Below, piece after piece: positions 6,384-52,594 of a stretch of DNA of 64,000 nt; within the stretch, counting starts at the first letter, position 1; every line of letters begins with the position of its first letter. The position numbers were made by a program, and so were the translations under genes. Under the pieces are notes generated by a model. It was not told the DNA's origin. It saw only the letters and a list, made by a program, of their open reading frames with translations, and did not search any database. Source of the stretch: a virus (Duplodnaviria; Caudoviricetes); IMG/VR virus record IMGVR_UViG_3300027983_002388. The stretch is one strand, 5' to 3'.

Positions 6384-6505
6384 TGCGATATACTCATTCT
6401 CCGGGCGATCTCGATCAGCAATCGTCGGTTTCTATGTGAGAAAGCCGGACTTCTATCGGTACGAGCAAGACTGATAAGCCAAGCTGGTTTCACCCGGAGA
6501 GTGAG

Positions 6506-6913
6506 TTGTCTTTGGTCAAATTTATTGGATTCGATATGATACGCAAAATTACTGATCCGTGGGAAGTAAGCAAAGATGCACCGCCCAAGACTCTGGAAGG
6601 AGCCATCGTATTTTTGAATAATTGGTTATCTCAAACATCAGGTAAAGAAAAAGACGAAGACCCTGAGCAACCTATGATTGAGGTAGTTACAAAGATGATA
6701 AACGAAAACCCAACCGAATGGTGGCTTGGACATCATTTCGGTTGGGGCATGGGTATGAGAAACATACTTCGCAAGAATGGATACGACGAGCAAACGCTCG
6801 GCGTCAGCAATCTTGACGATTACTACATTGGGCTGATCGAGCAAGCATGTTTAGGCAAGGGAAACCATCACCATGAAATGCCTAGTCTCGACGCCGATAG
6901 TACAAAAGAATGA
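6506..6913 (+). CDS. DUF6794-like hypothetical protein
   Basis: PKTLEGAI...HHFGWGMGMRN pattern; N-terminal RKITDPWEVS motif. Confidence 0.5.
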   Translation: MSLVKFIGFDMIRKITDPWEVSKDAPPKTLEGAIVFLNNWLSQTSGKEKDEDPEQPMIEVVTKMINENPTEWWLGHHFGWGMGMRNILRKNGYDEQTLGVSNLDDYYIGLIEQACLGKGNHHHEMPSLDADSTKE

Positions 6914-6998
6914 CTCGTCTAATGTGATCTGCTTCGATTTTTCCCCACGATCCATCGTCGTGAAAAATCTCTTTAATGAATTTCCATATTCGGTTCAT
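6882..6998 (-). CDS. 38-aa small ORF (MNRIWKFIKEIFHDDG...)
   Basis: AAGGAGG SD and upstream TAAATA; below ORF-track length cutoff. Confidence 0.45.
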   Translation of the reverse strand: MNRIWKFIKEIFHDDGSWGKIEADHIRRVILLYYRRRD

Positions 6999-7031
6999 AT
7001 AGCCTCCTTTGCCAAAAGGAACCGAATGTAT

Positions 7032-7628
7032 TTATCCTACCTGTCGATACTTCACTTTTTCTTGGAATTCATTTGGATGAATTAAACCCAACAAACTGGG
7101 TTTATCAGTTGCAAATTGATCCCAACTGATGCTTCTGTTGAAATTATTGATTTGAGTTGCTTGGATGTCACATTCGATGACGCCGCAGCCCCAATCAATA
7201 TCGAAGAACATCAAACTTATTTTCCAACTACGGTCGCATGGACAGGCGACGTGTGGAAGTCATTCGTAAAGTTCCGAAACTCCTGGAATCTTCCAGCGTA
7301 TGTTGTTGAGATAAGGATTGCAATCATGGACAACAATAGTGCCACCAATATTGATGCTCCGAATGGAATTCAAGATGTCTTTGTCTACTTGATCTGATTG
7401 ATGCAATCCATCAATGAAAATCAAATCAAACTTTTGTGTATTGAAAGCAAAGAATTCATCTGAAGTGATTTGATATGTGGCCGCAGTATTATTCGGGTCT
7501 ACACAAAATTTGTGTTCACATTGGATGTGCTGGTATGTGTCAAATGTACCAATACCTATTTCCAAGTAGCTTTTGTAAGATAGCTCTTTAATCAAGAACG
7601 AAATCAATTCGAGTCGAGTTGAAAACAT
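7032..7628 (-). pseudogene. class I SAM methyltransferase (Methyltransf_24-like) disrupted by an internal 105-bp inversion (7203-7307)
   Basis: YLEIG, FDLIFIDGLH, VVHDCNP on the - strand; WTGDVWKSFVKFR on the + strand; DIDWGCGVI again on the - strand; re-inversion gives one 198-aa ORF. Confidence 0.85.
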
Positions 7629-7630
7629 CC

Positions 7631-8359
7631 TTAAAATTTCACTTGAGCCAAACACGGCGGCATAATTTGTTTGAGCATTGACACTGGAATATACGCCATG
7701 AGTTTATCTTGCTGGCTTCTAGGATCAGGGCGAACTCGCAATGTTGCAGCACCCATCCGATAGTTACCTCGTTGATCGAATCCCTCATCTTCGGCCCCGG
7801 CTCGCATCTCTTCTATGAGCTTTTTGGCTTCAGCAACGCTTACCAACACGATTTTGCCGCCAACTCGACTTAGAACAGCATAGAACTCAGCTTTGCCAAC
7901 CATGTCTCTACCAGGGACGCCACGGCGATAATCCTTCATGACTTCAAAGAGAATATCATCTCCAGTATCACGATATTTGATTTGAATGGGTTTTTCACCG
8001 CTGGGAGTGTCCCACCATCCGTCAACCTTGTCATATTTATCTTCTTGAGTGGATGGCTCTCTAAGTTTCATTCCACATTGAACCAAGCTATCAAATATCT
8101 GCTTTTCAATACTTTTGCCATATTGAACTCTCTGGTCAATGTCCTGAAATCTATTGCCCATACGCATTTGAGGCGGTGAAGTACGATCAGCAGGGTTTGG
8201 AGCATGACCAAGAGATGGCTTAGGAATTTCTTCTTCAGGATTTGTCACAGGTATCACCGGCTTTTGTTGTTGCATACGACGAGGATCACGGCCAAAGGCT
8301 CCACCTACGGGGCCTCGCCAGCGAGCTTCATTAGTTGATAACCATTTTGAAAAGTTCAT
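7631..8359 (-). CDS. PD-(D/E)xK-like nuclease domain protein with capsid-targeting-like N-terminus (MNFSKWLSTNEA)
   Basis: GKSIEKQI...EDKYDKVDGW...IQIKYR; TAAATA 4 nt upstream. Confidence 0.6.
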   Translation of the reverse strand: MNFSKWLSTNEARWRGPVGGAFGRDPRRMQQQKPVIPVTNPEEEIPKPSLGHAPNPADRTSPPQMRMGNRFQDIDQRVQYGKSIEKQIFDSLVQCGMKLREPSTQEDKYDKVDGWWDTPSGEKPIQIKYRDTGDDILFEVMKDYRRGVPGRDMVGKAEFYAVLSRVGGKIVLVSVAEAKKLIEEMRAGAEDEGFDQRGNYRMGAATLRVRPDPRSQQDKLMAYIPVSMLKQIMPPCLAQVKF

Positions 8360-8411
8360 AGCTTATTTATCTCCCAAGCTACATATTATTCAAAGTTAAA
8401 TATAATGAAAT

Positions 8412-8688
8412 ATGATTGAGCATGAACCAGAAGAAATCCGAATCAAAACATACAAAGACCCTTTAATGGATGGGAAGCTCCTCATGGGACACACACACAC
8501 AATATAAAGGCAACAGCCATATGGGTGCTGGATATTTCTTTGCGCCTTACGTCCCTTTGACTCGAACTCCGACCGTTTTTGGTCAGACGCACCAAGCTGT
8601 TGATTACGCTCGTGGTGATGATGTTGTAAAGCCAACAAAAGCTCACAGAAGCATCACCGATCCGTGGGAAGTTTCTCGATTCGACTGA
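8412..8688 (+). pseudogene. major capsid protein (gp23-like) C-terminal mini-gene, frameshifted at a (CA)6 tract
   Basis: frame 1 IKTYKDPLMDGKLLMG (8412-8489) + 13-nt CACACACACACAA + frame 2 YKGNSHMGAGYFFAPYVPLTRTP; matches the gp23 C-terminal YKG...GY(F/Y)(A/C)PY(V/I)PL motif. Confidence 0.7.
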
Positions 8689-10143: not shown

Positions 10144-10620
10144 ATGAGCAACAACAACTCTGTCGCTGTTATTGTTGTGGGCCTGTTAGGGTTCATGGCA
10201 ATTGCCATCACAGGAAAATGGATTCTCGATCAAAATAATGAGTGTAATCATCATCGCCAAGATCATCGAGATCGAATTGAAATAAACACACCGGCACCAC
10301 AAGTTGTGACACCACCGGCTCAACAAATAATTGTGACACCACCGGCTCAACAAATAATTGTGACACCACCGGCTCAACAAATCATCATTGGTCGTCCTTA
10401 CCCACAAGCCTACCCACAATATCACAGCAGAAACGAATTCTGGATGGGATATTCCGATGGATGGAATGGTATGGGAATGCGTCAGAATTGCCCTGAATAT
10501 ATTCAGGGCTATCAGATCGGCACGCATGATCGCAGTTGTCATCGACCATATTATCACGAACGACATTGCCCACCAGGGTTCTCTTTGAGAGTCCCTGGCT
10601 TTAGCTTGAATATCCGTTAA
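10144..10620 (+). CDS. membrane-anchored protein with TPPAQQIIV tandem repeats
   Basis: AAGGAGG SD; TM helix; 27-bp tandem repeat around 10305-10390. Confidence 0.7.
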   Translation: MSNNNSVAVIVVGLLGFMAIAITGKWILDQNNECNHHRQDHRDRIEINTPAPQVVTPPAQQIIVTPPAQQIIVTPPAQQIIIGRPYPQAYPQYHSRNEFWMGYSDGWNGMGMRQNCPEYIQGYQIGTHDRSCHRPYYHERHCPPGFSLRVPGFSLNIR

Positions 10621-13554: not shown

Positions 13555-14137
13555 ATGTTTAGACCAGATCAAGTCCATGATGTCATGAAGCTGTACACCA
13601 TCGGTGACGGCGAGCCTAATACTTGATGAAGTTCAAACCGGCGTAGGCTTGACCGGGACAACATGGGCATACGAACATCATGCCGGGCTGCGGCCCGATA
13701 TGATAGCGTTCGGGAAGAAAACGCAGGTCTGTGGCTTCGCTTCTACCACCCGTATTGATGAAGTGCCTGATAATGTATTCAAACAATCCAGTCGTATCAA
13801 TTCGACCTGGGGTGGAAACATTATTGACATGATTAGATTCACGCACATTGCAGAGATCATGAAAGAAGATGGAATCTTAAATCAAGTTGCCATAGTTGGC
13901 GACTACTTCTTAAAGCAGCTTCACACGATTCCACGCATCACTAATGTTCGTGGCAAAGGATTGATGCTGGCTTTTGATTTAGAGACGCCTGACGCACGCA
14001 ACAAGGTCTTAGATAACCTACTAAAAAGAATGACCGTCCTGCCTTGTGGAGAACGGTCAATTCGATTAAGACCACATTTGATATTCTCAATGGCCGACGT
14101 AGACGAGGCCATCGACATCATTAAACACGCCGTTTAA
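13555..14137 (+). pseudogene. lat: L-lysine 6-aminotransferase-like (class III PLP) gene with large internal deletion
   Basis: N-terminal MFRPDQVHDVMKLYTIGDGEP (13555-13617) joined out of frame to LILDEVQTG...AFGKKTQVCG...NSTWGG...RGKGL; roughly 230-240 residues missing by comparison with remembered family length. Confidence 0.75.
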
Positions 14138-15614
14138 GATACTCAAAGAATAATGGCATCTTGTTTTTGTTCCTCAGATTGTGATCTGCAAATTTACTTG
14201 TGTGAGGAGTATCCAAATTTGGTTCTGGCAATCCAAGTTTAGCAAGATCGACTCCCTGTTTTTTCAGCATGGACAATAAGGTGTCCTTGTCTACGCCTGC
14301 CTTTTCAGCAGACGCCATGATTTCTGGAATTTCTGCCTGGAAAACCACAGGTGGCTCTTTTGAAACATCAATCAAATTTTTGAGATGAGACTGTAAAGGA
14401 TCAGATTTTGCTTCTGGTGCTGTTTCTGGTGCTGTTTCTGGTGCTGTTTCTGGAGTTGTTTCTGGTGCTGTTTCTGGAGTTGCTTCTGGTGCTGTTTCTG
14501 GAGTTGCCGCCTGATTCAATCCAGCCTTAACTTGTTTGAGTGCAGCAGCAAAGTCTTCTGTTGGTTGACTTCCAGTCATACCCTTCTCAAGCTCTCCCAA
14601 TGCGTGCATAGCTTGTTGGATAGCATCCGTGTCACGTCCTTGATCTTTCTGTGCTTGATACTCATCGCCAGCTTTACCCCATTGGTTCCAAGCCCCTTTG
14701 GCATTAGCCCATTGACGACCAAACCAATCTTTAGCACCATCGAACATGCCTTCATTGAGGTATTGCCCTTCTTCGATATACCAATCAACAAATTTAACTG
14801 GATCAATACCATGTTCTTGAAGAGTTCGCAGCCCAGTCTTAATTTCATTATGAAGCCTGATCTTACGAGTGAATTCGCCAAATCCATTTGATTCAAAAGA
14901 TGGCGTATCAGCACTAGCCGCTTGAGCAATATTAGCTGGGTTGTTGAGTAGATGCAGCAAATTAACAACTGCTGCTTGGAAAGAAGGTCCGCCAAGTTTT
15001 TCCATCAATGACTTGGACTTAGACATACGCTTAGAAAGTGCATCTACAGCGGTTGCTGCATTCTTGGCATGTTGTGTGTATGCTGGCTGTGGCGTTGATC
15101 CTGGTGGCGTTGATCCTGGTGGCGTTGATCCTGGTGGCGTTGATCCTGGTGGCGTTGATCCTGGTGGCGTTGATCCTGGTGGCGTTGATCCTGGTGGCGT
15201 TGATCCTGGATGAATTGAAGAGTAGGGATTTCCCTCAACGCCTGAGTTAAAACTTTTTGCAATATCTCCTCCCTGCCCTTGTAGCCAGCCACCAACTTTG
15301 CCTCCTAATTCACTAGCTCCTCCTAATGCTCTACCTAATCCATAAGTAACGGCGGAACTTTTTGGTCGATTGGCAGTTTGTTGATAGCCCTGTTTGAATC
15401 TATCGAAAAAACCTTCATTTAGATAAATCTCATTTTTAAGCCATTCTTCAGATGCTTCTGTAAGCAATCCTTGGTCCTGCATACCGATTCCATCGGTTGT
15501 GTACCACTCGACAAAATCGTTAGGATCAATTCCACGTTCGGACATCAAAATGAACGATTCTCTTACCATTCTGAGATTCGTGGTGGTTTTTAGGCTTTCA
15601 GTAAATGTTCTCAT
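14121..15614 (-). CDS. putative internal head/ejected protein with duplicated domain and PPGST/APET repeats
   Basis: MRTFTESL; two GIDP..FV(E/D)WY...LNEG(F/M)FD units. Confidence 0.65.
   Translation of the reverse strand: MRTFTESLKTTTNLRMVRESFILMSERGIDPNDFVEWYTTDGIGMQDQGLLTEASEEWLKNEIYLNEGFFDRFKQGYQQTANRPKSSAVTYGLGRALGGASELGGKVGGWLQGQGGDIAKSFNSGVEGNPYSSIHPGSTPPGSTPPGSTPPGSTPPGSTPPGSTPPGSTPPGSTPQPAYTQHAKNAATAVDALSKRMSKSKSLMEKLGGPSFQAAVVNLLHLLNNPANIAQAASADTPSFESNGFGEFTRKIRLHNEIKTGLRTLQEHGIDPVKFVDWYIEEGQYLNEGMFDGAKDWFGRQWANAKGAWNQWGKAGDEYQAQKDQGRDTDAIQQAMHALGELEKGMTGSQPTEDFAAALKQVKAGLNQAATPETAPEATPETAPETTPETAPETAPETAPEAKSDPLQSHLKNLIDVSKEPPVVFQAEIPEIMASAEKAGVDKDTLLSMLKKQGVDLAKLGLPEPNLDTPHTSKFADHNLRNKNKMPLFFEYLKRRV
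15091..15210 (-). repeat. 15-bp tandem repeat x8 encoding PPGST
   Basis: GGCGTTGATCCTGGT units, identical except the last base of the final unit. Confidence 0.95.
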
Positions 15615-16924: not shown

Positions 16925-18190
16925 ATGTCGATGTTAGAGGAAGCCAAAAAACAACTACATGCTGCGTACAAGTTTGCTCAAATTGATGATGAAAGTTGGC
17001 AGCGTCTTCAATATCCACAAAAGACCCTCAATGTCACAATTCCAATGCGACATGATGATGGCACTCTCAAAATGTATCAGGCATTTCGCTGCCAATACGA
17101 TACAACTCTCGGCCCAGCAAAGGGTGGTATTCGCTACCATCCATCCGTAGACGCAGACCATTGCGAAGCTCTCGCATTATGGATGACTTTCAAGTGTGCC
17201 TGCCTCAAATTACCATATGGTGGTGCCAAAGGCGGTATTTGCGTAGATGCGACAAAATTATCGCACCGTGAATTAGAACGTCTCAGTAAGGCTTATATCG
17301 CATCTATGATCGACTTTATCGGTCCAGATGTTGATGTGCCTGCACCGGACCTTTATACCGACGAACGAATCATGGGCTGGATGTATTCTGAATACAAAAG
17401 AATCAAAGGTGGACATCCAAAAGATATTGTCACTGGAAAACCAGTTGCTCTGGGAGGCATAGAAGGTAGAAGCTCTGCTACTGGCTATGGTGGATTTTAC
17501 GTTCTGGAAAATATCCTCAACAATAGCGTGAGCAAAATAAACATTCCATCCAATCCAGAAGACATCCGAATTGCAATTCAAGGTTTCGGAAAAGTTGGGT
17601 ATTGGTTAGCTGAAAAATGCTTCCGTTCTGGATTGAAGGTTGTGGCCTTGACGAATGAGTTTGGTGGCTCGTATAACGAACATGGACTAAATGTCTCAGC
17701 TTGTCGCAAGTCATTAGATGAAAGCGGCGGCAAAGAATGGGGAGATGGTGACAAAATAACCAATGAAGAATTATGGTCATTGGATATTGATGTTCTGGCA
17801 CCCTCGGCTGTTGAAAATGTCATCACCATCAATAATGCCGACAAAATCAAAGCCAAGGTAATTTTGGAAATGGCTAACGGACCCACCACAAATGAAGCTG
17901 ATGCGATTCTAAATGACCGTGGCATATTGGTGATTCCCGATATTTTGGCGAATGCTGGTGGTGTGGTTGTCAGCTATTTTGAATGGCTCCAAAACCGAAC
18001 GGCGATCAGCCGAACACTGCAAGAAGTCGATCATGATCTCCGAGAAATGATGGTATACGCAACCGAAAGAGTTATTGCGTTGCACATGAAGCACGATATT
18101 TCTGCTCGGACGGCAGCATACGTTTTGGCATTAAAAAGAATCAATGATGCAAACATCTGTTTAGGAAGTCGAGGGTATTTTCAGAAATGA
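16925..18190 (+). CDS. gdhA: Glu/Leu/Phe/Val (glutamate) dehydrogenase
   Basis: GPAKGGIRYHP, GGAKGG, DVPAPD, GRSSATGYG, QGFGKVG, EMANGP, PDILANAGGV. Confidence 0.93.
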   Translation: MSMLEEAKKQLHAAYKFAQIDDESWQRLQYPQKTLNVTIPMRHDDGTLKMYQAFRCQYDTTLGPAKGGIRYHPSVDADHCEALALWMTFKCACLKLPYGGAKGGICVDATKLSHRELERLSKAYIASMIDFIGPDVDVPAPDLYTDERIMGWMYSEYKRIKGGHPKDIVTGKPVALGGIEGRSSATGYGGFYVLENILNNSVSKINIPSNPEDIRIAIQGFGKVGYWLAEKCFRSGLKVVALTNEFGGSYNEHGLNVSACRKSLDESGGKEWGDGDKITNEELWSLDIDVLAPSAVENVITINNADKIKAKVILEMANGPTTNEADAILNDRGILVIPDILANAGGVVVSYFEWLQNRTAISRTLQEVDHDLREMMVYATERVIALHMKHDISARTAAYVLALKRINDANICLGSRGYFQK

Positions 18191-18665: not shown

Positions 18666-18905
18666 ATGGACGTGCGGCAAGAAGATTGTTATCTTTGGAT
18701 GGACGAGTCGATCCCCGAAGACGAAAGAACGATGAACGTGTTGTGTGAACAGTGTCATCTAAAATATCCCACTCTAGGATGGTTTTGGGAAGGATCAAAG
18801 CTCGGTTACGGACCTTTTGAGTTTGTCTGCAACATATGCGGGCATTTGGTATACGCCGCCCCTAAGTCCAGCACAAACAACGAGATAGGGCAAGGGACTA
18901 CATGA
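18666..18905 (+). CDS. small zinc-finger protein
   Basis: CEQC...CNICG; overlaps the methyltransferase start (ATGA coupling). Confidence 0.6.
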   Translation: MDVRQEDCYLWMDESIPEDERTMNVLCEQCHLKYPTLGWFWEGSKLGYGPFEFVCNICGHLVYAAPKSSTNNEIGQGTT

Positions 18906-19699
18906 AAACCATCAGACCAGTGTTTAAGTGCCACGGTGGAAAATTCTATTTGGCACAGTGGATTATTTCGCATTTTCCTGAGAAGTACACAGAGATGACG
19001 TACTTGGAACCCTTTTGCGGGGGTGCGAATGTTCTTTTGAATAAAGAAAAATCTATCATCGAGATCATAAACGATCTCGATCCAAATGTCACTCAAATCT
19101 ATCAGGCGTTGCGAGACGAACCGAAAGAACTGATTCGACGTTTGAACCTCTGCAAATATTGCGAAGAAACTTTTGATCGAGCCGTCAAGAAAACCCAATA
19201 CGATGACTATTTGGATTATGCTGTAAATGAATTTATCGTTCGCCGCATGAGCCGTGGAGGGTTGAAAAAAGCATTCGCCTGGAGCAATCGTTTACGAGGC
19301 GGTCAACCTGGAGATGTCAACGCTTGGATGACAGCCGTAAAAGGTTTGCCTGATCTTGGAGAGCGAATCAAAGAAGTTTACATCTTCAATAAACCTGCCC
19401 TTGAAGTAATGAAGGCATTCAACTCGCCAAATACTTTTTTATATTGCGATCCACCATATTTGCACGAAACACGAGTATCAAAAACCGTATATTCTTCAGA
19501 AATGACTACCTACGATCATATCGAATTAGGACATGCCTTGAACGCATTTCAGGGCAAGGCCATGATTAGCGGATATGCTTCACCGCTGTACAACCGACTC
19601 TACAAAGAGTGGAATGTTGAGAAGAAAAAGATCGCCAATCATTCGTCGCAACAAAAGACCAAAGAGAAAAAGATCGAAGTGATCTGGAAAAATTACTGA
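18902..19699 (+). CDS. Dam-like N6-adenine DNA methyltransferase (D12 class)
   Basis: GGKFYLA, YLEPFCGG, IINDLD, YCDPPY. Confidence 0.92.
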   Translation: MKTIRPVFKCHGGKFYLAQWIISHFPEKYTEMTYLEPFCGGANVLLNKEKSIIEIINDLDPNVTQIYQALRDEPKELIRRLNLCKYCEETFDRAVKKTQYDDYLDYAVNEFIVRRMSRGGLKKAFAWSNRLRGGQPGDVNAWMTAVKGLPDLGERIKEVYIFNKPALEVMKAFNSPNTFLYCDPPYLHETRVSKTVYSSEMTTYDHIELGHALNAFQGKAMISGYASPLYNRLYKEWNVEKKKIANHSSQQKTKEKKIEVIWKNY

Positions 19700-23686: not shown

Positions 23687-25729
23687 ATGAACGAGAGAAA
23701 AAATATCGTAAGGCAAAATACCACAAGAAAAACGCAAAACGATAAATTGAAAGAAGCGTTGGCAAAAAAGCCGACCGCATCTCATTTGAATACAGTGGGC
23801 ATTTCTCCAATTCAAATGGACCAACTCAGTAGAATGCCGCCAGAAAAAGAAAAATTACTTAAAGATCGTCTGGTCAGAAATTCCAAGAATCGAAAAAGGT
23901 TTAACAATCGTCCCCTGACAGTTGTTCTTTCCGATCAGATAGCTGGCACTAGCTACATGGAGTCATTGGGTTCAAATGATGGTCGGTCCAATGAATGGCC
24001 TGCTCCTGCTTGGTTTCGCACAACACAACCAGTAGATGTTTCTGTAATTATTCCGCTATACAAAAGTGATAGTGTCATACAGGATTTAATTCGTACATGG
24101 CCAATTGAAACAGGAAAATACACTGTCGAAATAATCTTTGTTGACGATCAATGTCCAAAAAAATCAAAAGAAGTAGCATTGAACACCTGGACACTTCGCA
24201 AAAGTGAACTTAAAGGTCCAGTTGGTAAGATCATCTACAATTCAAGCAACAAAGGTTACGGACAAGCCTGTAATGCAGGTGCCGCTGTTGCTTCTGGCAA
24301 ATACTTGATATTTTTGAATGCCGACACAAAGGTTACTTCGGGTTGGGTTGATCCTATGATCGAGTTGTTCAATGATCCCAAAGTTGGATTGGTTGGCAAC
24401 ATGCACCTAAAAGAAGGTGGCGATCATAATGGAACAATCGACAGTGCCGGGTCCGAGTGGAAATGGAACGATATGTCTTTTATTCACATCGGAAGACACT
24501 GTTATCGAAAACAGGGCATTGCCGGACCCTACAAACCAGAAAATGCTCCTAGAGACTTGTTAGAAGTCAACGAACGAGAAATGGTAACTGGTTGCTGTTT
24601 TGCAATGACAAAATCATTGTTTGAATATATTGGCGGATTCAATCCAAATTATAGAATTGGTTATTGGGAAGATTCTGAAATCTGCCTAAACGTCAAAGAA
24701 CTTGGCTACAAGGTCATGTTCCAGCCTAAATCTGTAATCTATCATAAATTAGGACACACAGCATCAGGTGGGCATAGATATTTTGGTCACAACAAACTTT
24801 ACTTCATGAACAAATGGGTCAAATCTCATCGACTCGATGATCTTTTGTTAACAGAAGCACGCTCAAAGAATGACAATCCTGTGAATCGCATTTTAGTTCG
24901 TCGTAGCAATGCTCATGGAGACGCATTGGTTGCAGCAGGCGTATGTGCTGGTCTTCGGAAGAAGTATCCAAAGGCCCACATTATGTTTTGCACTCTCTTT
25001 CCTGAAGTCATATGCCAAAATCCAAACATTGATGAATTCATTGATGTTCGTCAAATACACAAAACTCCATTTGATGTATTTTACAATTTAGATTTTTGCT
25101 ACGAATGGCGTCCAAGGATCAACATCCTTACGGCTTATGCTGAAGCTGTGGGCATCAAGAAAGAAGACTGCAAAGTCTGCATGGTGCCAGAGCCTTTCGA
25201 GTCACTTCCAAAAAATTACATTGTAGTTCACGCTGGTCGTACTGATTGGGTTGGCCGGGATTGGCCACACGAAAACTTCGTTGAATTAACGAAGAGGCTT
25301 ATATCGGCTGGCGAAACTGTAGTGGCTGTTGGCAAATACTCTGAAGGTGAAATCCCTTGCAATCTGGACCTGAGATCAAAGACCAACATCGCACAAATGG
25401 CATTTGTCATGAGCAAAGCAAAGGCGTTTGTCGGCATTGATTCTTTGCCCATGCACGTCGCTCAGGCGTTCGACGTACCAGGAGTTTCTTTCTTTGGCTG
25501 CGTGTGGCCCGAATCAAGAATCTACAGCGATAAGATGCGTGGCATCAACGCAAAAGATTTATCCTGTTTAGGTTGCCACCATCGTAAACCAGCGCCATCT
25601 ACTGTGACTAAGAGTTGCGAAACAGGCACTCTGGATTGCATCAGTGGTGTATCTGTTGATGATATGTGGTTCAAAGTGCAAGACTTACTTGAGGAAGTGA
25701 ACAATGGACGTATTAGCCTCTTGGGATGA
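23687..25729 (+). CDS. fused GT2 + GT9 (heptosyltransferase-like) glycosyltransferase
   Basis: VSVIIPLY..FVDD, GYGQACN, FLNADT, YWEDSE (GT2); RRSNAHGDAL, FVGIDSLPMHVAQAFDVP (GT9). Confidence 0.88.
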   Translation: MNERKNIVRQNTTRKTQNDKLKEALAKKPTASHLNTVGISPIQMDQLSRMPPEKEKLLKDRLVRNSKNRKRFNNRPLTVVLSDQIAGTSYMESLGSNDGRSNEWPAPAWFRTTQPVDVSVIIPLYKSDSVIQDLIRTWPIETGKYTVEIIFVDDQCPKKSKEVALNTWTLRKSELKGPVGKIIYNSSNKGYGQACNAGAAVASGKYLIFLNADTKVTSGWVDPMIELFNDPKVGLVGNMHLKEGGDHNGTIDSAGSEWKWNDMSFIHIGRHCYRKQGIAGPYKPENAPRDLLEVNEREMVTGCCFAMTKSLFEYIGGFNPNYRIGYWEDSEICLNVKELGYKVMFQPKSVIYHKLGHTASGGHRYFGHNKLYFMNKWVKSHRLDDLLLTEARSKNDNPVNRILVRRSNAHGDALVAAGVCAGLRKKYPKAHIMFCTLFPEVICQNPNIDEFIDVRQIHKTPFDVFYNLDFCYEWRPRINILTAYAEAVGIKKEDCKVCMVPEPFESLPKNYIVVHAGRTDWVGRDWPHENFVELTKRLISAGETVVAVGKYSEGEIPCNLDLRSKTNIAQMAFVMSKAKAFVGIDSLPMHVAQAFDVPGVSFFGCVWPESRIYSDKMRGINAKDLSCLGCHHRKPAPSTVTKSCETGTLDCISGVSVDDMWFKVQDLLEEVNNGRISLLG

Positions 25730-26324
25730 TGGATCAACGGCTGATTTGAAGATGGCTGAACTTATGGCACGCTACAACGTACCAACCATTTTCTATTGGC
25801 CATCCATGCTAGGCAAAGCCAAGAATATGGCAATGACGAGTTCTTGGCTCACAGAAAAGGACTGCAAAGAGATAGCCAGTCGATTTGAAATCGGATCACA
25901 TTCTGCGAGTCATCAAGCAATGAGCAAAATGACCATTCCCCAATTGGGGATGGAAATTACAGATTCTCGTAAACACTGGCAAGACTTGACCGGGCAAGAA
26001 ATTAAATCCTTTGCGTATCCTAAAAGCAGCATGAATAGTTTAACAAAAGCTCTTATTCGAGGAGCGGGCTACGAATCTGCTCGCACCAGCATACCGGGAC
26101 ACTTACAACCCGGTGACGATCCTTTTGCAATTCAATGCACAGTTCAAATCGGGATCGACCGCATTGAATACGTTGATAGATGCTGGGAATACTTTGCTGA
26201 CGATATGTTATCCAAAGCAGAACCCAATAGTGTTTTCTACATCTTCGGAAACTCTTGGGATGTAGAAGCATACAACGATTGGGATGCTTTAGAGTCGCTT
26301 CTTATGAAGATAAAGTCCGCTTAA
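25704..26324 (+). CDS. polysaccharide deacetylase (NodB/CE4-like)
   Basis: SWDDG, EIGSHSASH, FAYP. Confidence 0.82.
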   Translation: MDVLASWDDGSTADLKMAELMARYNVPTIFYWPSMLGKAKNMAMTSSWLTEKDCKEIASRFEIGSHSASHQAMSKMTIPQLGMEITDSRKHWQDLTGQEIKSFAYPKSSMNSLTKALIRGAGYESARTSIPGHLQPGDDPFAIQCTVQIGIDRIEYVDRCWEYFADDMLSKAEPNSVFYIFGNSWDVEAYNDWDALESLLMKIKSA

Positions 26325-33624: not shown

Positions 33625-34533
33625 ATGTCAAAAACAGCCCTAGTTACTGGTGCCAGCGGGTTCGTTGGCCATCATCTTTGCAATATACTTTACAACCAAG
33701 GTTGGAAAGTTGTCGCCATAGGAACCAAAGGTGAACATAAACCTTTGTGTCATAAATTCCTCCAGTTTAACTTAGATGGTATCGCATGGGATTTAGTCCC
33801 AAAGATAGACGTTTGTTTTCATCAGGCGGCAAATAATGATACGACGGATATGGACATGGAAAATATGCTCCGGTCGAACCTGACTGCTCCGTCGAATCTA
33901 TTCTATAGTTTGGCACGAGAAAAAGGTTGCAAACAATTTGTGTATGCGTCCAGTTGTTCTGTATATGGCAACGAGGCTGTGCCATACAAAGAGAAAGAAA
34001 CACGATTAGACCCTTTGAACCCATACGCTCATTCCAAAATGTTGTTTGAGCAATTCGCTGAGAGCTTTGCCCTTGAATACAGCGTCAATCTTATTGGTCT
34101 TAGATATTCCAATGTTTATGGACCGGGAGAAAGTCACAAGGGGAAGCGATCAAGTATGATAAGCCAATTATTGCAAAAAATGCAACTAGGGGAAAGGCCA
34201 AAAATATTCAAATTAGGAGAACATTTAAGAGATTGGGTGTACATCGAAGATGTTATAAGTGCCAACATATTGGCAAGCGAATACAAATACTCAAACGTAT
34301 TCAATGTTGGTTCAGGAGAAGCCATGAGTTTCAACAACGTAGTTGCTACGTTGAATGCCGAATTGGGATCAAATCTGGAACCAGAGTATATCGACTGTCC
34401 ATTCTTAGATACCTATCAATCACACACATTGCTTGATCTAACGCACTCTAAGGCAAATTTAGGATATAACCCCGAATACGGACCAAAGGCGGGAATCAAA
34501 CGATTTGTGGAAGAAATTAGAATCGCTCCTTGA
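33625..34533 (+). CDS. NAD-dependent epimerase/dehydratase (HldD/GalE-like)
   Basis: TGASGFVG, YASSCSVYG, YAHSK, RYSNVYGP, RDWVYIED. Confidence 0.92.
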   Translation: MSKTALVTGASGFVGHHLCNILYNQGWKVVAIGTKGEHKPLCHKFLQFNLDGIAWDLVPKIDVCFHQAANNDTTDMDMENMLRSNLTAPSNLFYSLAREKGCKQFVYASSCSVYGNEAVPYKEKETRLDPLNPYAHSKMLFEQFAESFALEYSVNLIGLRYSNVYGPGESHKGKRSSMISQLLQKMQLGERPKIFKLGEHLRDWVYIEDVISANILASEYKYSNVFNVGSGEAMSFNNVVATLNAELGSNLEPEYIDCPFLDTYQSHTLLDLTHSKANLGYNPEYGPKAGIKRFVEEIRIAP

Positions 34534-36852: not shown

Positions 36853-36860
36853 AGTTGACC

Positions 36861-37046
36861 TCACATGAAATAACGTGTATTGGTTTTATAGATCGAGTTT
36901 TTTCTTTGATTTGTCTTTTGAATACGACTAATCAACCTTTGTTGCTGCTCGGTCAATGGTGGATTTGTTGCAAGATTAGTGCTTCCGCAACCACAACCTT
37001 TCGGTTTCTCTTCTGGTTTGTCGCTTGGTACTTGCAATTCATCCAT
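36861..37046 (-). CDS. small basic protein with GCGC motif
   Basis: TAAATA 4 nt upstream. Confidence 0.6.
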   Translation of the reverse strand: MDELQVPSDKPEEKPKGCGCGSTNLATNPPLTEQQQRLISRIQKTNQRKNSIYKTNTRYFM

Positions 37047-37055
37047 ACTCTATTT

Positions 37056-38570
37056 ATGAATGAGCAACCAAAAAGGATTTCCAATATGTTTACAGAAGAC
37101 GATGTTTTGAAGTTGATTGAAAAAGCAATCGAAGCTGCATTCAAAAAGTTTAAGGCGGGATGCTATCAGGACGCCGAAATAATACTCAATCAAACCATTA
37201 AAGTCTTTCCTACAGAAATTCACGCATTGCAATTGATGGGTCTTGTAAAACACAATCTTGGCAAATTCACAGAAGCCATCGACATCTTCAACAAAACAAT
37301 AGAAATTGCTCCCAACGATCCAGAAAACTATAACAACATAGGTTTGTGTTATTCAAACAATGGAAAATACGATGCTGCAATTGAAATGCTAAAAAAGGCC
37401 ATCGAACTAAATCCAACTTGCGCCTACATGCACAGCAACCTGGGGCTTCAACACAGAAACATCAATAATCTCGATTCCGCTATCGAATGTTTCCAAAAAT
37501 CACTTTCTATCGAAGAGAGTGATTTAACCTGGGGCATGTTAGGTGGATGCTACGGGGAAAAACGTCATTTAGACGACGCTGAAAGGTGTTTCAAAAAGTC
37601 GATTGAAATCAACCCAAACTTTGCTGGTGGCCATGTAGACTTGGCAAACGTATATCACTTAAAAGGCGAGTGGGATAAGGCTTGGGAAGAATACGAATGG
37701 CGATATGAAGTATTTGAACAACTTAAAGTATGGAAAAATCTCTATGACCCAAGCAAGACATGGAATGGCGAACCACTTGATGGCAAGACTATAATCGTTC
37801 ATGGAGAACAAGGTCACGGTGATACCATTCAGTTCTTCAGATACATCCATCATTTGAAAGCTCGTGTCATATTACACTGTTCAAATGATTTGGCTTCTAT
37901 TTTTGCTGGTCATGTAGATGAGATTTACACAAATGAACCTAGTGAAACTAAAACAGAACAATTGCCAGTTCACGACTACCACTGTTCTATTTTGAGTTTG
38001 CCTTATCTTCTAAAACTGAAAGCGATACCGCCTTTCTCATTGAAGATTGACAAAAGTATAAATCTTGATGGTTACTCTAATCTAATGAAGATCGGCATTG
38101 TTTGGGCGGGAAATCCACAACATCCAAACGACGCCAATCGCTCCTGCCATCTGAAACATTTTCGTGAGATTCATGATATTCCTGGCGTTAAATTGTTTAG
38201 CTTAGTCAAGGACATACGACCTCGCATCTACCGCTTTAACGCCAATCCAATTGATCTCACCGAAGAAACTGAGGACATGAAAATTGTGGATATGGCACCA
38301 ATGATGGAAACATTCAGAGACACAGCAGAAGTCATCAATTCTCTCGATTTAGTGATTACTGTAGACACATCTGTTCTGCATCTCGCCGGATCAATGGGAA
38401 AACCGACCTGGGCCTTATTGCCGTGGACTTGTGACTGGAGATGGGGTTCAGGAGAAGAAACAATATGGTATCCGAGCGTTCGGATATTTCGCCAACCGTC
38501 CAAAGGCGATTGGCAGTCAGTATTTTCAAACATCAAAAAAGAGATTTACAATGAACAACGATTATGTTGA
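37056..38570 (+). CDS. TPR-repeat protein with C-terminal GT-B (GT9-like) glycosyltransferase domain
   Basis: about 5-6 TPRs; EQGHGDTIQFFRY, DLVITVDTSVLHLAGSMGKPTWALLP. Confidence 0.88.
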   Translation: MNEQPKRISNMFTEDDVLKLIEKAIEAAFKKFKAGCYQDAEIILNQTIKVFPTEIHALQLMGLVKHNLGKFTEAIDIFNKTIEIAPNDPENYNNIGLCYSNNGKYDAAIEMLKKAIELNPTCAYMHSNLGLQHRNINNLDSAIECFQKSLSIEESDLTWGMLGGCYGEKRHLDDAERCFKKSIEINPNFAGGHVDLANVYHLKGEWDKAWEEYEWRYEVFEQLKVWKNLYDPSKTWNGEPLDGKTIIVHGEQGHGDTIQFFRYIHHLKARVILHCSNDLASIFAGHVDEIYTNEPSETKTEQLPVHDYHCSILSLPYLLKLKAIPPFSLKIDKSINLDGYSNLMKIGIVWAGNPQHPNDANRSCHLKHFREIHDIPGVKLFSLVKDIRPRIYRFNANPIDLTEETEDMKIVDMAPMMETFRDTAEVINSLDLVITVDTSVLHLAGSMGKPTWALLPWTCDWRWGSGEETIWYPSVRIFRQPSKGDWQSVFSNIKKEIYNEQRLC

Positions 38571-46753: not shown

Positions 46754-47488
46754 ATGAAAGGCATTATTTTAGCAGGCGGGATGGGGACAAGACTTCATCC
46801 TTTGACAAAAGTAACCAACAAATGCTTATTGCCAGTGCATGATAGACCCATGATTTATTGGCCAATTCAAACACTTGTGGGCAGTGGCATCAAAGATATT
46901 CTTTTAGTATGTGGCGGGAACGCCGCAGGTGAATTTTTGAGAATCCTTGGCAACGGTGAAGAATTTGGCCTGAAACATCTTCACTACACATACCAGAAAG
47001 AAGCAAATGGAATTGCCGACGCTTTATCTTTGGCAGAAGAATGGGCAGACAATGAACCAGTAGCCGTAATTCTGGCTGACAACATTTATGAAAATCCGGT
47101 TCCTGAAGTTGTTACCGCCTTTGAAAAGAATCCTGATGGCGCACACATCTTCTTGACGCCAGTAGACCATCCAGAGTGTTACGGCGTAGTTGAAACAGAC
47201 GCAGCAGGAAAAGTAATAGGGATCGAAGAAAAACCTAAAGAACCGAAATCCAACTTGATCGCAACAGGGTTGTATATGTACGACGGAGGAGTTTGGGACT
47301 ACATCCGAACGCTCAAGCCATCCAAGAGAAACGAACTTGAGATCACCGATCTCAATAATCGTTATTTGGGCATTGGGAAGCTCCACGCTCACACAATCAA
47401 TGGTTGGTGGGCAGACTGCGGAGAAAGTCTCGAAGGATATACGCAGACGTGCTATGCAGCCAGCAGACTTGGAAAGAAGGCTGAGTAA
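46754..47488 (+). CDS. glucose-1-phosphate thymidylyltransferase-like (RmlA/SpsI) NTP-sugar transferase
   Basis: GIILAGGMGTRLHPLT..NK.LLPV, LADNI, YGVV, EEKP, ELEITD. Confidence 0.92.
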   Translation: MKGIILAGGMGTRLHPLTKVTNKCLLPVHDRPMIYWPIQTLVGSGIKDILLVCGGNAAGEFLRILGNGEEFGLKHLHYTYQKEANGIADALSLAEEWADNEPVAVILADNIYENPVPEVVTAFEKNPDGAHIFLTPVDHPECYGVVETDAAGKVIGIEEKPKEPKSNLIATGLYMYDGGVWDYIRTLKPSKRNELEITDLNNRYLGIGKLHAHTINGWWADCGESLEGYTQTCYAASRLGKKAE

Positions 47489-49948: not shown

Positions 49949-50352
49949 ATGACGAACTTCCAAGAATTCGTTGATCGTAAAAAAACGGTAAAAGTTGGCG
50001 TCGTTGGTTTTTCAGCCCAGAAGTTTGACATCTCTAAGGCAAAAGCCTATATCGTGGCGGCTTTTGACAAGATTGAAAAGGACTTCTCGCCGAAGAACAT
50101 TCATTGCATTTCCGGATTGACCGACCTTGGCATTCCAGCACTGGCGTACCGGGAAGCGCTCTGGAATACGACTTATTCAATGTCGATGAGACGATCTTGG
50201 TAGGGGAAGAGTGGGGCGATGAGAGCGATACATTCCTCTCCATGCTCGATGTCATGGTGAAGGTGGGCGGCGGTAAACAATCGGTAGCAGAGGCTGAAAA
50301 GGCCGAAGCGAACGGGTTGTCGGTGATGAAATTTGATTTGAAGGCCGAATAG
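49949..50352 (+). pseudogene. SLOG-family protein split by a short frameshifting deletion near 50158
   Basis: KVGVVGFS...ISGLTDLGIPALAYREA in one frame; ALEYDLFNVDE..VGEEWGDES.TFL...KVGGGKQS in another. Confidence 0.7.
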
Positions 50353-51056: not shown

Positions 51057-51658
51057 TATCCCTTCGGCCCTCTCTTCAAAGGCACCGGCTTCATTTTAGA
51101 GACATGACGATCTGGTTGTCCCTTCAAATGGTGCATCATATTGTGCAACTCTTTTGTGACATCTGCCGCTGAGTCTCCGTTGCACTTCTGAGCGTGTTGG
51201 ACGGATACGGTTCGACGATCTTTGTTGTAGAAGCCTTTGCTTATAACAAAGCAATTGTGGTCTGTATTCCAAGTCACAACCCCCGTCCATTCTCCGTCAT
51301 CCCAATTACGATACGAGACGAGCAGACGGAGGGGCTTTTCCGTGAAGACGTGTTTGGTGTGATAGCCGTGATTCTTCAGTGCAGCACTAACATAACCCAA
51401 GCATATTTTGGCGAAGCCCTCCAAGGATTCCTTGGATGTAGTTCGATAATTTACTTCAATTGCGTATCTGGATGTCTCCACGGCTTCGACTAGATTCTCT
51501 TCCAGATATTCATGATGGGTTTTCATGCCGCCCCGTAGGGTTGTGGCAAAATACTCTTGACAAATACGCAAGAAGTCCTCTCGCTCTACCTTGAGTTCGG
51601 TATGCGTATCATTTTTTTGCTCATTTCGCCAATTGTGAAAGTCTTTCATTGTTCCCAT
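51056..51658 (-). CDS. protein with capsid-targeting-like N-terminus (MGTMKDFHNWRNE)
   Basis: start at 51658 or 51649; coupled to the Nudix gene. Confidence 0.65.
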   Translation of the reverse strand: MGTMKDFHNWRNEQKNDTHTELKVEREDFLRICQEYFATTLRGGMKTHHEYLEENLVEAVETSRYAIEVNYRTTSKESLEGFAKICLGYVSAALKNHGYHTKHVFTEKPLRLLVSYRNWDDGEWTGVVTWNTDHNCFVISKGFYNKDRRTVSVQHAQKCNGDSAADVTKELHNMMHHLKGQPDRHVSKMKPVPLKRGPKG

Positions 51659-52503
51659 CCTTTTTCGCCAATTTCGCAATCAAAGTTTGTCCAAATGACT
51701 TCCTGTCGCAATTTCTTTTCTCCGTTTTGGAGAGTCGAATTGGCAAACTCAGAGGTTCTTCTGAACTCTCTCCAGTCGTGGAGTAAACTCGGATACAGGT
51801 CATTTATATATCCAGACAAGATCACCTTGCCTTGTAAAGTCAGAAGCAATTTCAACAATAAAATGTGTTGATCGTCTGAGAATTCATGAGAGTAATTTTC
51901 ACCGCCAGTTCTCGAACTCATCAAATAAGGCGGGTCAATATAATGCAAGGCATTAGGGGTGTCATATCTTTGTATTGCATCTAAGGCATCAATGTGTTCA
52001 ATCTGAACATTCTTGATTCGGTTGCAAACATCTTCAAGTCCATCAATGGCTCCCAACCATTGACTGACTGGTAATGCCCTTTTTTGTCTAGCATCTTTTT
52101 TTGTATAACTCCATCGTCCTGGAGTAGCCTTGGTTGCCAAGCCGCTTCTAACCTGTCTGGCTTTTACAAAGAATCTACGAGCTTTTTCCAATGGATCAAT
52201 GGCTTCTTCCATACAAGCGATTCTGAATTCTTCTCGACTATACGGAGTAAGGTCCAATAGACCGACCAATTCTTTTTGATTCAATCTAAGAACTTCAAAG
52301 AAGTTCACCACATCATTGTGAATGTCATTGTAAACTTCTACATCACTTGGAGCTTTATTCAAAAGCACTGCTGCCGATCCGCCGAACGATTCCACATACA
52401 CTTTATGTGGAGTTGAATCCACTAATGGAACAAGCCAATTGAGATGACAGGTTTTTCCGCCATACCAAGAAAAAGCACTGATTTCATTTTTGCGTCTTCT
52501 CAT
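51646..52503 (-). CDS. Dam-like N6-adenine DNA methyltransferase (D12 class)
   Basis: WYGGK, YVESFGGS, VYNDI, YIDPPY. Confidence 0.92.
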   Translation of the reverse strand: MRRRKNEISAFSWYGGKTCHLNWLVPLVDSTPHKVYVESFGGSAAVLLNKAPSDVEVYNDIHNDVVNFFEVLRLNQKELVGLLDLTPYSREEFRIACMEEAIDPLEKARRFFVKARQVRSGLATKATPGRWSYTKKDARQKRALPVSQWLGAIDGLEDVCNRIKNVQIEHIDALDAIQRYDTPNALHYIDPPYLMSSRTGGENYSHEFSDDQHILLLKLLLTLQGKVILSGYINDLYPSLLHDWREFRRTSEFANSTLQNGEKKLRQEVIWTNFDCEIGEKGWEQ

Positions 52504-52594
52504 GTATATAATAAACAACTTTTTTTAGAATGGTTGAAAAATAAAGGCGTATATAGGATCAAAGAGCGAATAAATCACCAAATGAAATAAAGAG

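Follow-up and report, generated by a model that had tools for sequence, protein, structure and literature searches.

A huge uncultured T4-like freshwater myophage, of which we analysed one stretch of 64,000 nucleotides (the window) encoding tail sheath, tail tube and gp15-like proteins, carries at positions 7032 to 7628 a methyltransferase gene whose central part lies on the wrong strand. This arrangement raises the question of whether the gene is a reversible switch, the victim of a single mutational event or a chimera generated during amplification or assembly, three readings that the original prediction, made from the letters of the window, had left side by side. Hereafter, the form present in the window is called OFF and the intact form ON, and all positions are those of the window.

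Organization of the disrupted gene

On the minus strand, the reading frame that opens with the ATG at 7628 runs for 107 family-typical codons, ending in ...IVVHDCNPYL, which encode the SAM-binding Rossmann half of the methyltransferase (piece A, 7308 to 7628), and then continues into 15 nonsense codons, produced by antisense reading of the flipped segment, up to a premature stop at 7262 to 7260. The resulting product of 122 amino acids, 107 of them native and 15 nonsense, is identical to the protein P0001 described below. The 35 codons that should follow (codons 108 to 142, EEHQTY...WTGDVWK...PAYVV) are found on the plus strand at 7203 to 7307 (piece B), and the minus-strand reading resumes at 7202 with DIDWGCGVIE and proceeds to the stop at 7034 to 7032 (piece C, 7032 to 7202, codons 143 to 198 plus the stop). 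When piece B is re-inverted, the 321, 105 and 171 nucleotides of the three pieces are joined in a single ORF of 198 amino acids, and no stop or frameshift occurs within any of them. Thus, translation reproduced the minus-strand layout given in the original prediction, and the precise internal inversion of 105 bp that it had proposed was confirmed by the ORF restored upon flipping as well as by joints placed independently in the contigs described below. The limits of the inversion can be set at 7203 to 7307 or, given two ambiguous bases per side, at 7201 to 7309, and since the breakpoints are ambiguous by 2 nt, no weight should be given to the fact that the narrower limits are codon exact and span a multiple of three.

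In its present arrangement the gene lacks an intact, expressible ORF, which makes it a structural pseudogene in this strain. Piece C is at present an orphan ORF of 59 or 60 amino acids, called as the 59-aa protein P0121 on OFF contigs. Upstream, a gene of 242 amino acids (7631 to 8359, minus strand), with no Pfam or PHROG family and no function assigned, ends with a stop located 2 nt ahead of the methyltransferase ATG; this pairing is kept in all relatives, and a counterpart of 240 to 242 amino acids directly precedes the intact methyltransferase in the loci L004 to L011. The methyltransferase is the last gene of its operon, and since the next ORF past its 3' end (6506 to 6913) lies on the opposite strand, no polar effect of its disruption is expected.

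The gene order common to the relatives consists of the 242-aa gene, the methyltransferase and a convergent block. In L004 (4739 to 5964) and L008 (4753 to 6011), a 292-aa inosine-uridine nucleoside hydrolase (PF01156) and a gene of 116 to 127 amino acids are interposed between the methyltransferase and a conserved 316-aa gene. In place of this nucleoside hydrolase block, the window contains, between 6383 and 7032, only a 135-aa ORF, which marks the region as a variable spot.

Family, predicted fold and putative function of the methyltransferase

The assignment to the SAM-dependent methyltransferases, already made in the original prediction, was borne out by the match of piece A to Pfam Methyltransf_24 (PF13578), which scored 37.5 bits (E 4.7e-9), above the cutoff of 26.3; the intact relatives P0002 to P0004 score 35.7 to 41.5 bits against the same family. 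The protein search returned 4,310 homologues, nearly all of 190 to 210 amino acids, and the nearest intact ones are P0002 (206 amino acids, 78% identity), P0003 (198 amino acids, 74%) and P0004. In these three proteins the order of the motifs, HDCNP-[FY]L-EEHQTYF...W.GDVWK...YVV-D.DWGCG, is exactly that of the re-inverted ORF. Furthermore, the re-inverted translation features all 21 of the 21 invariant columns (E23...H101, D102, P105, W120, G122 and G147) of a 42-protein family alignment (A1).

Modelled with AlphaFold2 (pLDDT 96.1), the intact homologue P0003 presents a COMT/TrmR-like Rossmann methyltransferase fold, in which the residues corresponding to the flipped segment (108 to 142) are predicted to supply a helix (108 to 111), W120, G122, a second helix (124 to 134) and a strand (139 to 142). 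The model resembles cation-dependent O-methyltransferases (CCoAOMT/COMT-like enzymes, SafC and TrmR; PDB 8gxn, 5lhm, 3duw and 5zw3) with a Foldseek probability of 1.0 and TM scores of 0.5 to 0.59, although sequence identity to them is only 13 to 18% and the rmsd is 4 to 6 Å. A sequence search of the PDB gave no match to any solved structure (best E 0.41), and the search of NCBIfam returned nothing near cutoff and no functional name.

Different from the catechol or tRNA substrates of COMT/TrmR-type enzymes, the gene context of the homologues points to sugar modification. In particular, the neighbours of distant homologues are glycosyltransferases, hexapeptide acyltransferases, DegT aminotransferases and sugar epimerases, and on the basis of these neighbourhoods we suggest that the intact gene probably encodes a class I SAM-dependent O-methyltransferase acting on a sugar or glycan. 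The earlier guess at a surface- or glycan-modifying gene thus finds indirect support in these neighbourhoods.

A comparison with the relatives gave a dN/dS of about 0.1 for the whole gene and of 0.02 to 0.06 for piece B, indicating strong purifying selection historically. Polarization of the SNPs assigned to the window V41F, E175D and one synonymous change, which are too few for a test of relaxed selection. As judged from the P0003 model and the alignment, the 122-aa stump does not contain the last two beta-strands, three helices, W120, G122, D145 and G147; since these core strands, helices and invariant residues are missing, the stump is very unlikely to be active, and the enzyme would be off in the phage carrying it.

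The intact gene in relatives and the derived state of the flip

The re-inverted gene could be aligned without gaps over 198 codons with the intact genes of L004 and L008, with 75 to 81% nucleotide identity in every piece (75 to 77% for piece A), so that the full-length collinearity suggested beforehand as a check, together with the comparison with related phage genomes, was obtained. Each of the three pieces matches the intact genes collinearly, piece B in the flipped orientation only (E about 1e-24), an agreement well above what chance would produce. All the relatives L004 to L013 (75 to 81% identity) are ON, with piece B opposite to its present orientation, and the flipped state was seen in none of them. 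The ON form of every outgroup identifies OFF as the derived state.

Further searches outlined the distribution of the two forms. The region from 6500 to 8400 had no blastn match among 50,697 phage records; a pattern scan gave 0 matches in viral contigs and, in metagenome contigs, two contigs only, both of the L004 clade and both collinear. In a collection of 5.8 billion proteins, the 122-aa product used as query (67- to 214-aa range) retrieved no ON protein closer than 78% identity, and piece C (30- to 98-aa range) retrieved only the OFF-state 59-aa protein P0121 and no partial ON proteins.

Recurrence of the OFF allele in independent assemblies

Assemblies from ENA (megahit k141), JGI and Logan together supplied 11 contigs that code for P0001, the truncated protein of 122 amino acids. 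In run X1, the contig with the flipped form reaches a depth of 372. Three of the loci, L001 to L003, are 99.6 to 100% identical to the window across 5 to 6 kb, and piece B is flipped in all of them. Within this lineage some micro-diversity could be noticed, since L001 is devoid of 27 nt (in frame) near 10356 to 10382 and L002 differs from the window by one SNP near 8500, beside a (CA)n tract; the OFF genotypes differ mutually only by one SNP or one indel. The occurrence of the identical flip in genotypes distinguished by the 27-nt indel or by the SNP indicates that the OFF form is stably inherited. Moreover, the OFF strain is abundant and present in several samples and years.

Fold-back chimeras formed at short reverse-complementary sequences are a known class of artefact, and the amplification or assembly chimera considered in the original prediction, in which assembly, MDA or PCR would have created at the short inverted repeat a junction absent from the phage DNA, has to be judged against these data. 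It is possible that this record itself derives from several of the best-matching runs. However, all 11 contigs, which come from three pipelines and from several samples and years and include one at 372x, have the same junctions, and some OFF contigs belong to genotypes that differ elsewhere. A random chimera would neither recur nor dominate in this way; the chimera is thus refuted, and we regard an artefactual origin of the flip as extremely improbable.

The ON allele in sister strains

Logan contigs (contigs, not raw reads) of four runs, X1, X4, X5 and X6, were aligned to the region from 6700 to 7950. In two of these runs, X5 from soil and X6 from a glacier, there are contigs that are about 99% identical to the window and carry 7201 to 7309 on the opposite strand. 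In particular, record 13 of X6 (550 nt, depth 16.5) is composed of 7128 to 7200 on the plus strand, 7201 to 7309 on the minus strand and 7310 to 7677 on the plus strand, that is, 73, 109 and 368 nt that add up to 550 with 0 gaps and no extra letters between the parts. In X5, the right-hand joint is present in record 6, where 7201 to 7297 on the minus strand is joined to 7310 to 7537, and in record 4 the match ends at 7202 and is followed by 20 letters that do not fit the window. The joints, which connect opposite strands, were placed at 7200/7309 and 7201/7310, and at each of them 2 bases can be assigned to either side, in agreement with the TC/GA crossover homology that had been read from the letters.

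The ON contigs carry SNPs with respect to the window, of which those at 7480, 7508 and 7554 are common to X5 and X6. The flanks differ by about 1%, and the 109 flipped bases show 0 differences between the OFF form and the ON allele of X6, piece B being identical in both; the inversion is therefore recent. X1 (372x) and X4 provided OFF contigs only, and X5 and X6 ON contigs only, as far as contigs, which drop rare variants, can tell. With one orientation per sample and ON contigs bearing their own SNPs, the orientation is a strain-level polymorphism tied to the SNP haplotype. It had been reasoned beforehand that a complete lack of the ON state would denote a fixed pseudogene and not a switch; this holds at the contig level within each OFF sample, and it does not hold beyond them, where sister strains carry the ON allele.

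The inverted repeat at the junctions

The imperfect inverted repeat described in the original prediction exists and reaches further out than proposed. In the OFF state, local alignment pairs a left arm lying across the left junction (7192 to 7211, CAATCAATATC/GAAGAACAT) with the reverse complement (CAATCCTTATCTC/AACAACAT) of a right arm at 7300 to 7320, with identity in 16 of 21 columns, one gap and a score of 10; the arms are composed of a stretch with 9 of 11 matches and one with 7 of 8, with a bulge. The repeat has a P of about 0.003 with respect to random 105-bp segments of this window. The inversion started from the intact ON form, and there the repeat scores only 7 (P about 0.10); the relatives give scores of 6 to 7 (P 0.11 to 0.28). 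The outer halves of the repeat encode NPYL and DIDW, and the relatives have them as well. At the crossover, identity amounts to 2 nt (TC...GA), with 4 of 5 bases at the first junction. The junction repeat pair was not reported by a generic repeat search, and the predicted single-stranded DNA fold of 7186 to 7324 includes the repeat stem and is not significant (z -1.67).

Origin of the inversion

Taken together, one state per sample, a crossover of 2 nt, a repeat at chance level in the ON state and no recombinase among about 60 scanned window ORFs favour a one-off event. As expected of a spontaneous inversion, both breakpoints show inverted microhomology, the flip is exact to the base, with neither gain nor loss, and the derived OFF state occurs in a single lineage, whose haplotype it follows. 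We consider it probable that a single recent spontaneous inversion, mediated by microhomology or template switching, inactivated the methyltransferase in the lineage of this phage strain, and of the three readings offered at the outset the hairpin-driven template switch is the one that fits best. Quasi-palindrome mutagenesis of this kind is known in T4 rII. The event turned around 105 to 109 bp inside the 198-codon gene, and its breakpoints share a 2-nt inverted microhomology within a weak inverted repeat that is constrained by coding. Mechanistically, two template switches during replication, with copying passing from one sister strand to the other at the repeat (copy-choice), would be most likely; microhomology-mediated breakage and rejoining, the alternative candidate, would yield the same product sequence. 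The OFF allele would then have become fixed in a successful, widespread strain, with the sister strains, about 99% identical, staying intact. Gene conversion from an inverted paralogue was considered separately and rejected, as the window holds no second copy of piece B and no paralogue of the gene.

The inversion most likely represents a new instance of an already known kind of mutation, which pseudogenized a dispensable methyltransferase. Spacer inversions ascribed to template switching or illegitimate recombination share with it breakpoints at inverted microhomology in a weak inverted repeat, exactness without gain or loss of bases, a lineage-specific derived state, a location in coding DNA and reversibility, in principle, by a second event. 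However, the template-switch cases in yeast feature spacers of 2 to 5 bp and arms of 10 to 16 bp (Abraham & Hazkani-Covo 2021, PMC8604942), whereas the segment flipped here measures 105 bp, its arms are poorer and show no homogenization, and the outcome is the truncation of a gene and not a few amino acid changes.

Some observations sit less easily with a one-off event. The three pieces are undecayed, as expected for a recent event and also for a maintained switch; the OFF-state repeat beats chance (P about 0.003) and could support flipping back; and a minority orientation may be present within the samples, since contigs drop rare variants. These observations bear on the phase-variation switch of the original prediction, that is, a programmed intragenic inverton in which a site-specific recombinase of the phage or the host would flip the 105 bp between imperfect repeats of about 20 nt with a 2-bp core, thus allowing ON/OFF bet-hedging. 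The occurrence of both orientations in genomes about 99% identical, with exact and lossless junctions spanned by the repeat, agrees with such a switch, and the 2-nt shared core resembles the crossover of serine invertases, which is of 2 bp. With 2 nt, on the other hand, the crossover identity is too short for the spacer of a tyrosine recombinase. As had been stated for the window, no invertase was detected: among about 60 ORFs of the window (nearly all of them of 150 amino acids or more) a Pfam scan found no member of the Resolvase, Phage_integrase and Recombinase families, although a recombinase could lie elsewhere, since the genome measures at least 155 kb and the window covers 64 kb of it. 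Against a switch there are also the single orientation per sample at the contig level, its link to the SNP haplotype, the unchanged inheritance of the OFF form across micro-diverged genotypes, a repeat that in the ON state and in the relatives stays at chance level (P 0.10 to 0.28) with outer arms consisting of conserved coding sequence, and the lack of the flipped state in any of the relatives. Intragenic invertons, including some of the premature-stop type and one of 57 bp, have been described in Bacteroides, with both orientations in one culture (Chanin et al., 10.1101/2023.03.11.532203). Similarly to the locus studied here, those of the premature-stop type consist of a short segment (from 57 bp upward, a comparable size range) lying wholly within a gene and flanked by inverted repeats, whose flip adds a stop and splits the ORF. 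In those bacteria, however, a single culture or sample contains both orientations, and the flipping is attributed to invertases, different from the one orientation per sample (in contigs), haplotype linkage and absence of an invertase among the scanned window ORFs in our phage genome. We therefore judge a reversible switch unlikely, the contig-level evidence speaking against it short of refutation. If it were true, what look like ON and OFF strains would be snapshots of populations in alternative states, a phage population would hedge between two states of glycan modification, and the case would be the first report of an intragenic inverton from a virus.

The one-off inversion may also have been favoured by selection, if the 122-aa stump or the lost methylation (e.g., through a changed glycan marking of the virion or the host) were beneficial. 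The abundance of the OFF strain over several samples and years would suit this reading, as would the variability of a region in which the window is also devoid of the relatives' nucleoside hydrolase gene. Moreover, the strong past purifying selection (dN/dS about 0.1) through most of the history of the gene implies that its loss is a real phenotypic change. On the other hand, other accessory genes of the window look broken too, which fits plain gene decay, and the stump is devoid of invariant residues and core strands. An adaptive OFF state thus appears rather improbable to us.

Returning to the one-off spontaneous inversion, the OFF allele is fixed in a successful, widespread strain, and hence the methyltransferase is dispensable or costly there; the gene can be spared by at least one successful strain in the wild. 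The locus offers a natural example, with both alleles known, of how a small exact inversion at microhomology silences a conserved gene of a large phage without frameshift or deletion. Gene callers report just a 122-aa 'methyltransferase' and a 59-aa orphan, and for this reason such inversions are missed or misannotated. Should both states be found in one population, intragenic invertons would be extended to viruses, an outcome that the present evidence does not favour.

Accessory genes elsewhere in the window

Besides the methyltransferase, the window codes for glycosyltransferases, NAMPT, glutamate dehydrogenase and two Dam-like methyltransferases, and some of its accessory genes appear damaged. 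A 177-aa ORF (13604 to 14137, plus strand) matches only the C-terminal positions 227 to 403 of the 403-position class-III aminotransferase profile (E 6e-35), and no N-terminal half was found upstream, in either orientation, among ORFs of at least 40 amino acids; it looks like a gene remnant. Between NAMPT and a Nudix gene, two overlapping ORFs of 84 and 82 amino acids (49949 to 50352, plus strand), noted as a possible broken SLOG gene, look like the result of a frameshift and not of an inversion. These damaged genes fit an ongoing turnover of accessory genes.

A set of glycan-related genes comprises a 680-aa GT2+GT9 fusion, a polysaccharide deacetylase, an NAD-dependent sugar epimerase/dehydratase and a nucleotidyl transferase (23687 to 26324, 33625 to 34533 and 46754 to 47488), as well as a TPR+GT9 protein (36855 to 38570). 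It is possible to hypothesize that these genes encode pathway partners of the broken methyltransferase.

Other features of the window include a 497-aa protein with no Pfam family (14121 to 15614, minus strand), which carries eight tandem PGSTP repeats and an (A/T)PET run, and a full-length Glu/Leu/Phe/Val dehydrogenase (16925 to 18190, plus strand), which matches its two Pfam domains with E values of 1e-52 to 1e-62 and is unusual as an auxiliary metabolic gene. The two Dam-like genes, 18902 to 19699 on the plus strand and 51646 to 52518 on the minus strand, both encode D12-class N6-adenine DNA methyltransferases within the 64 kb.
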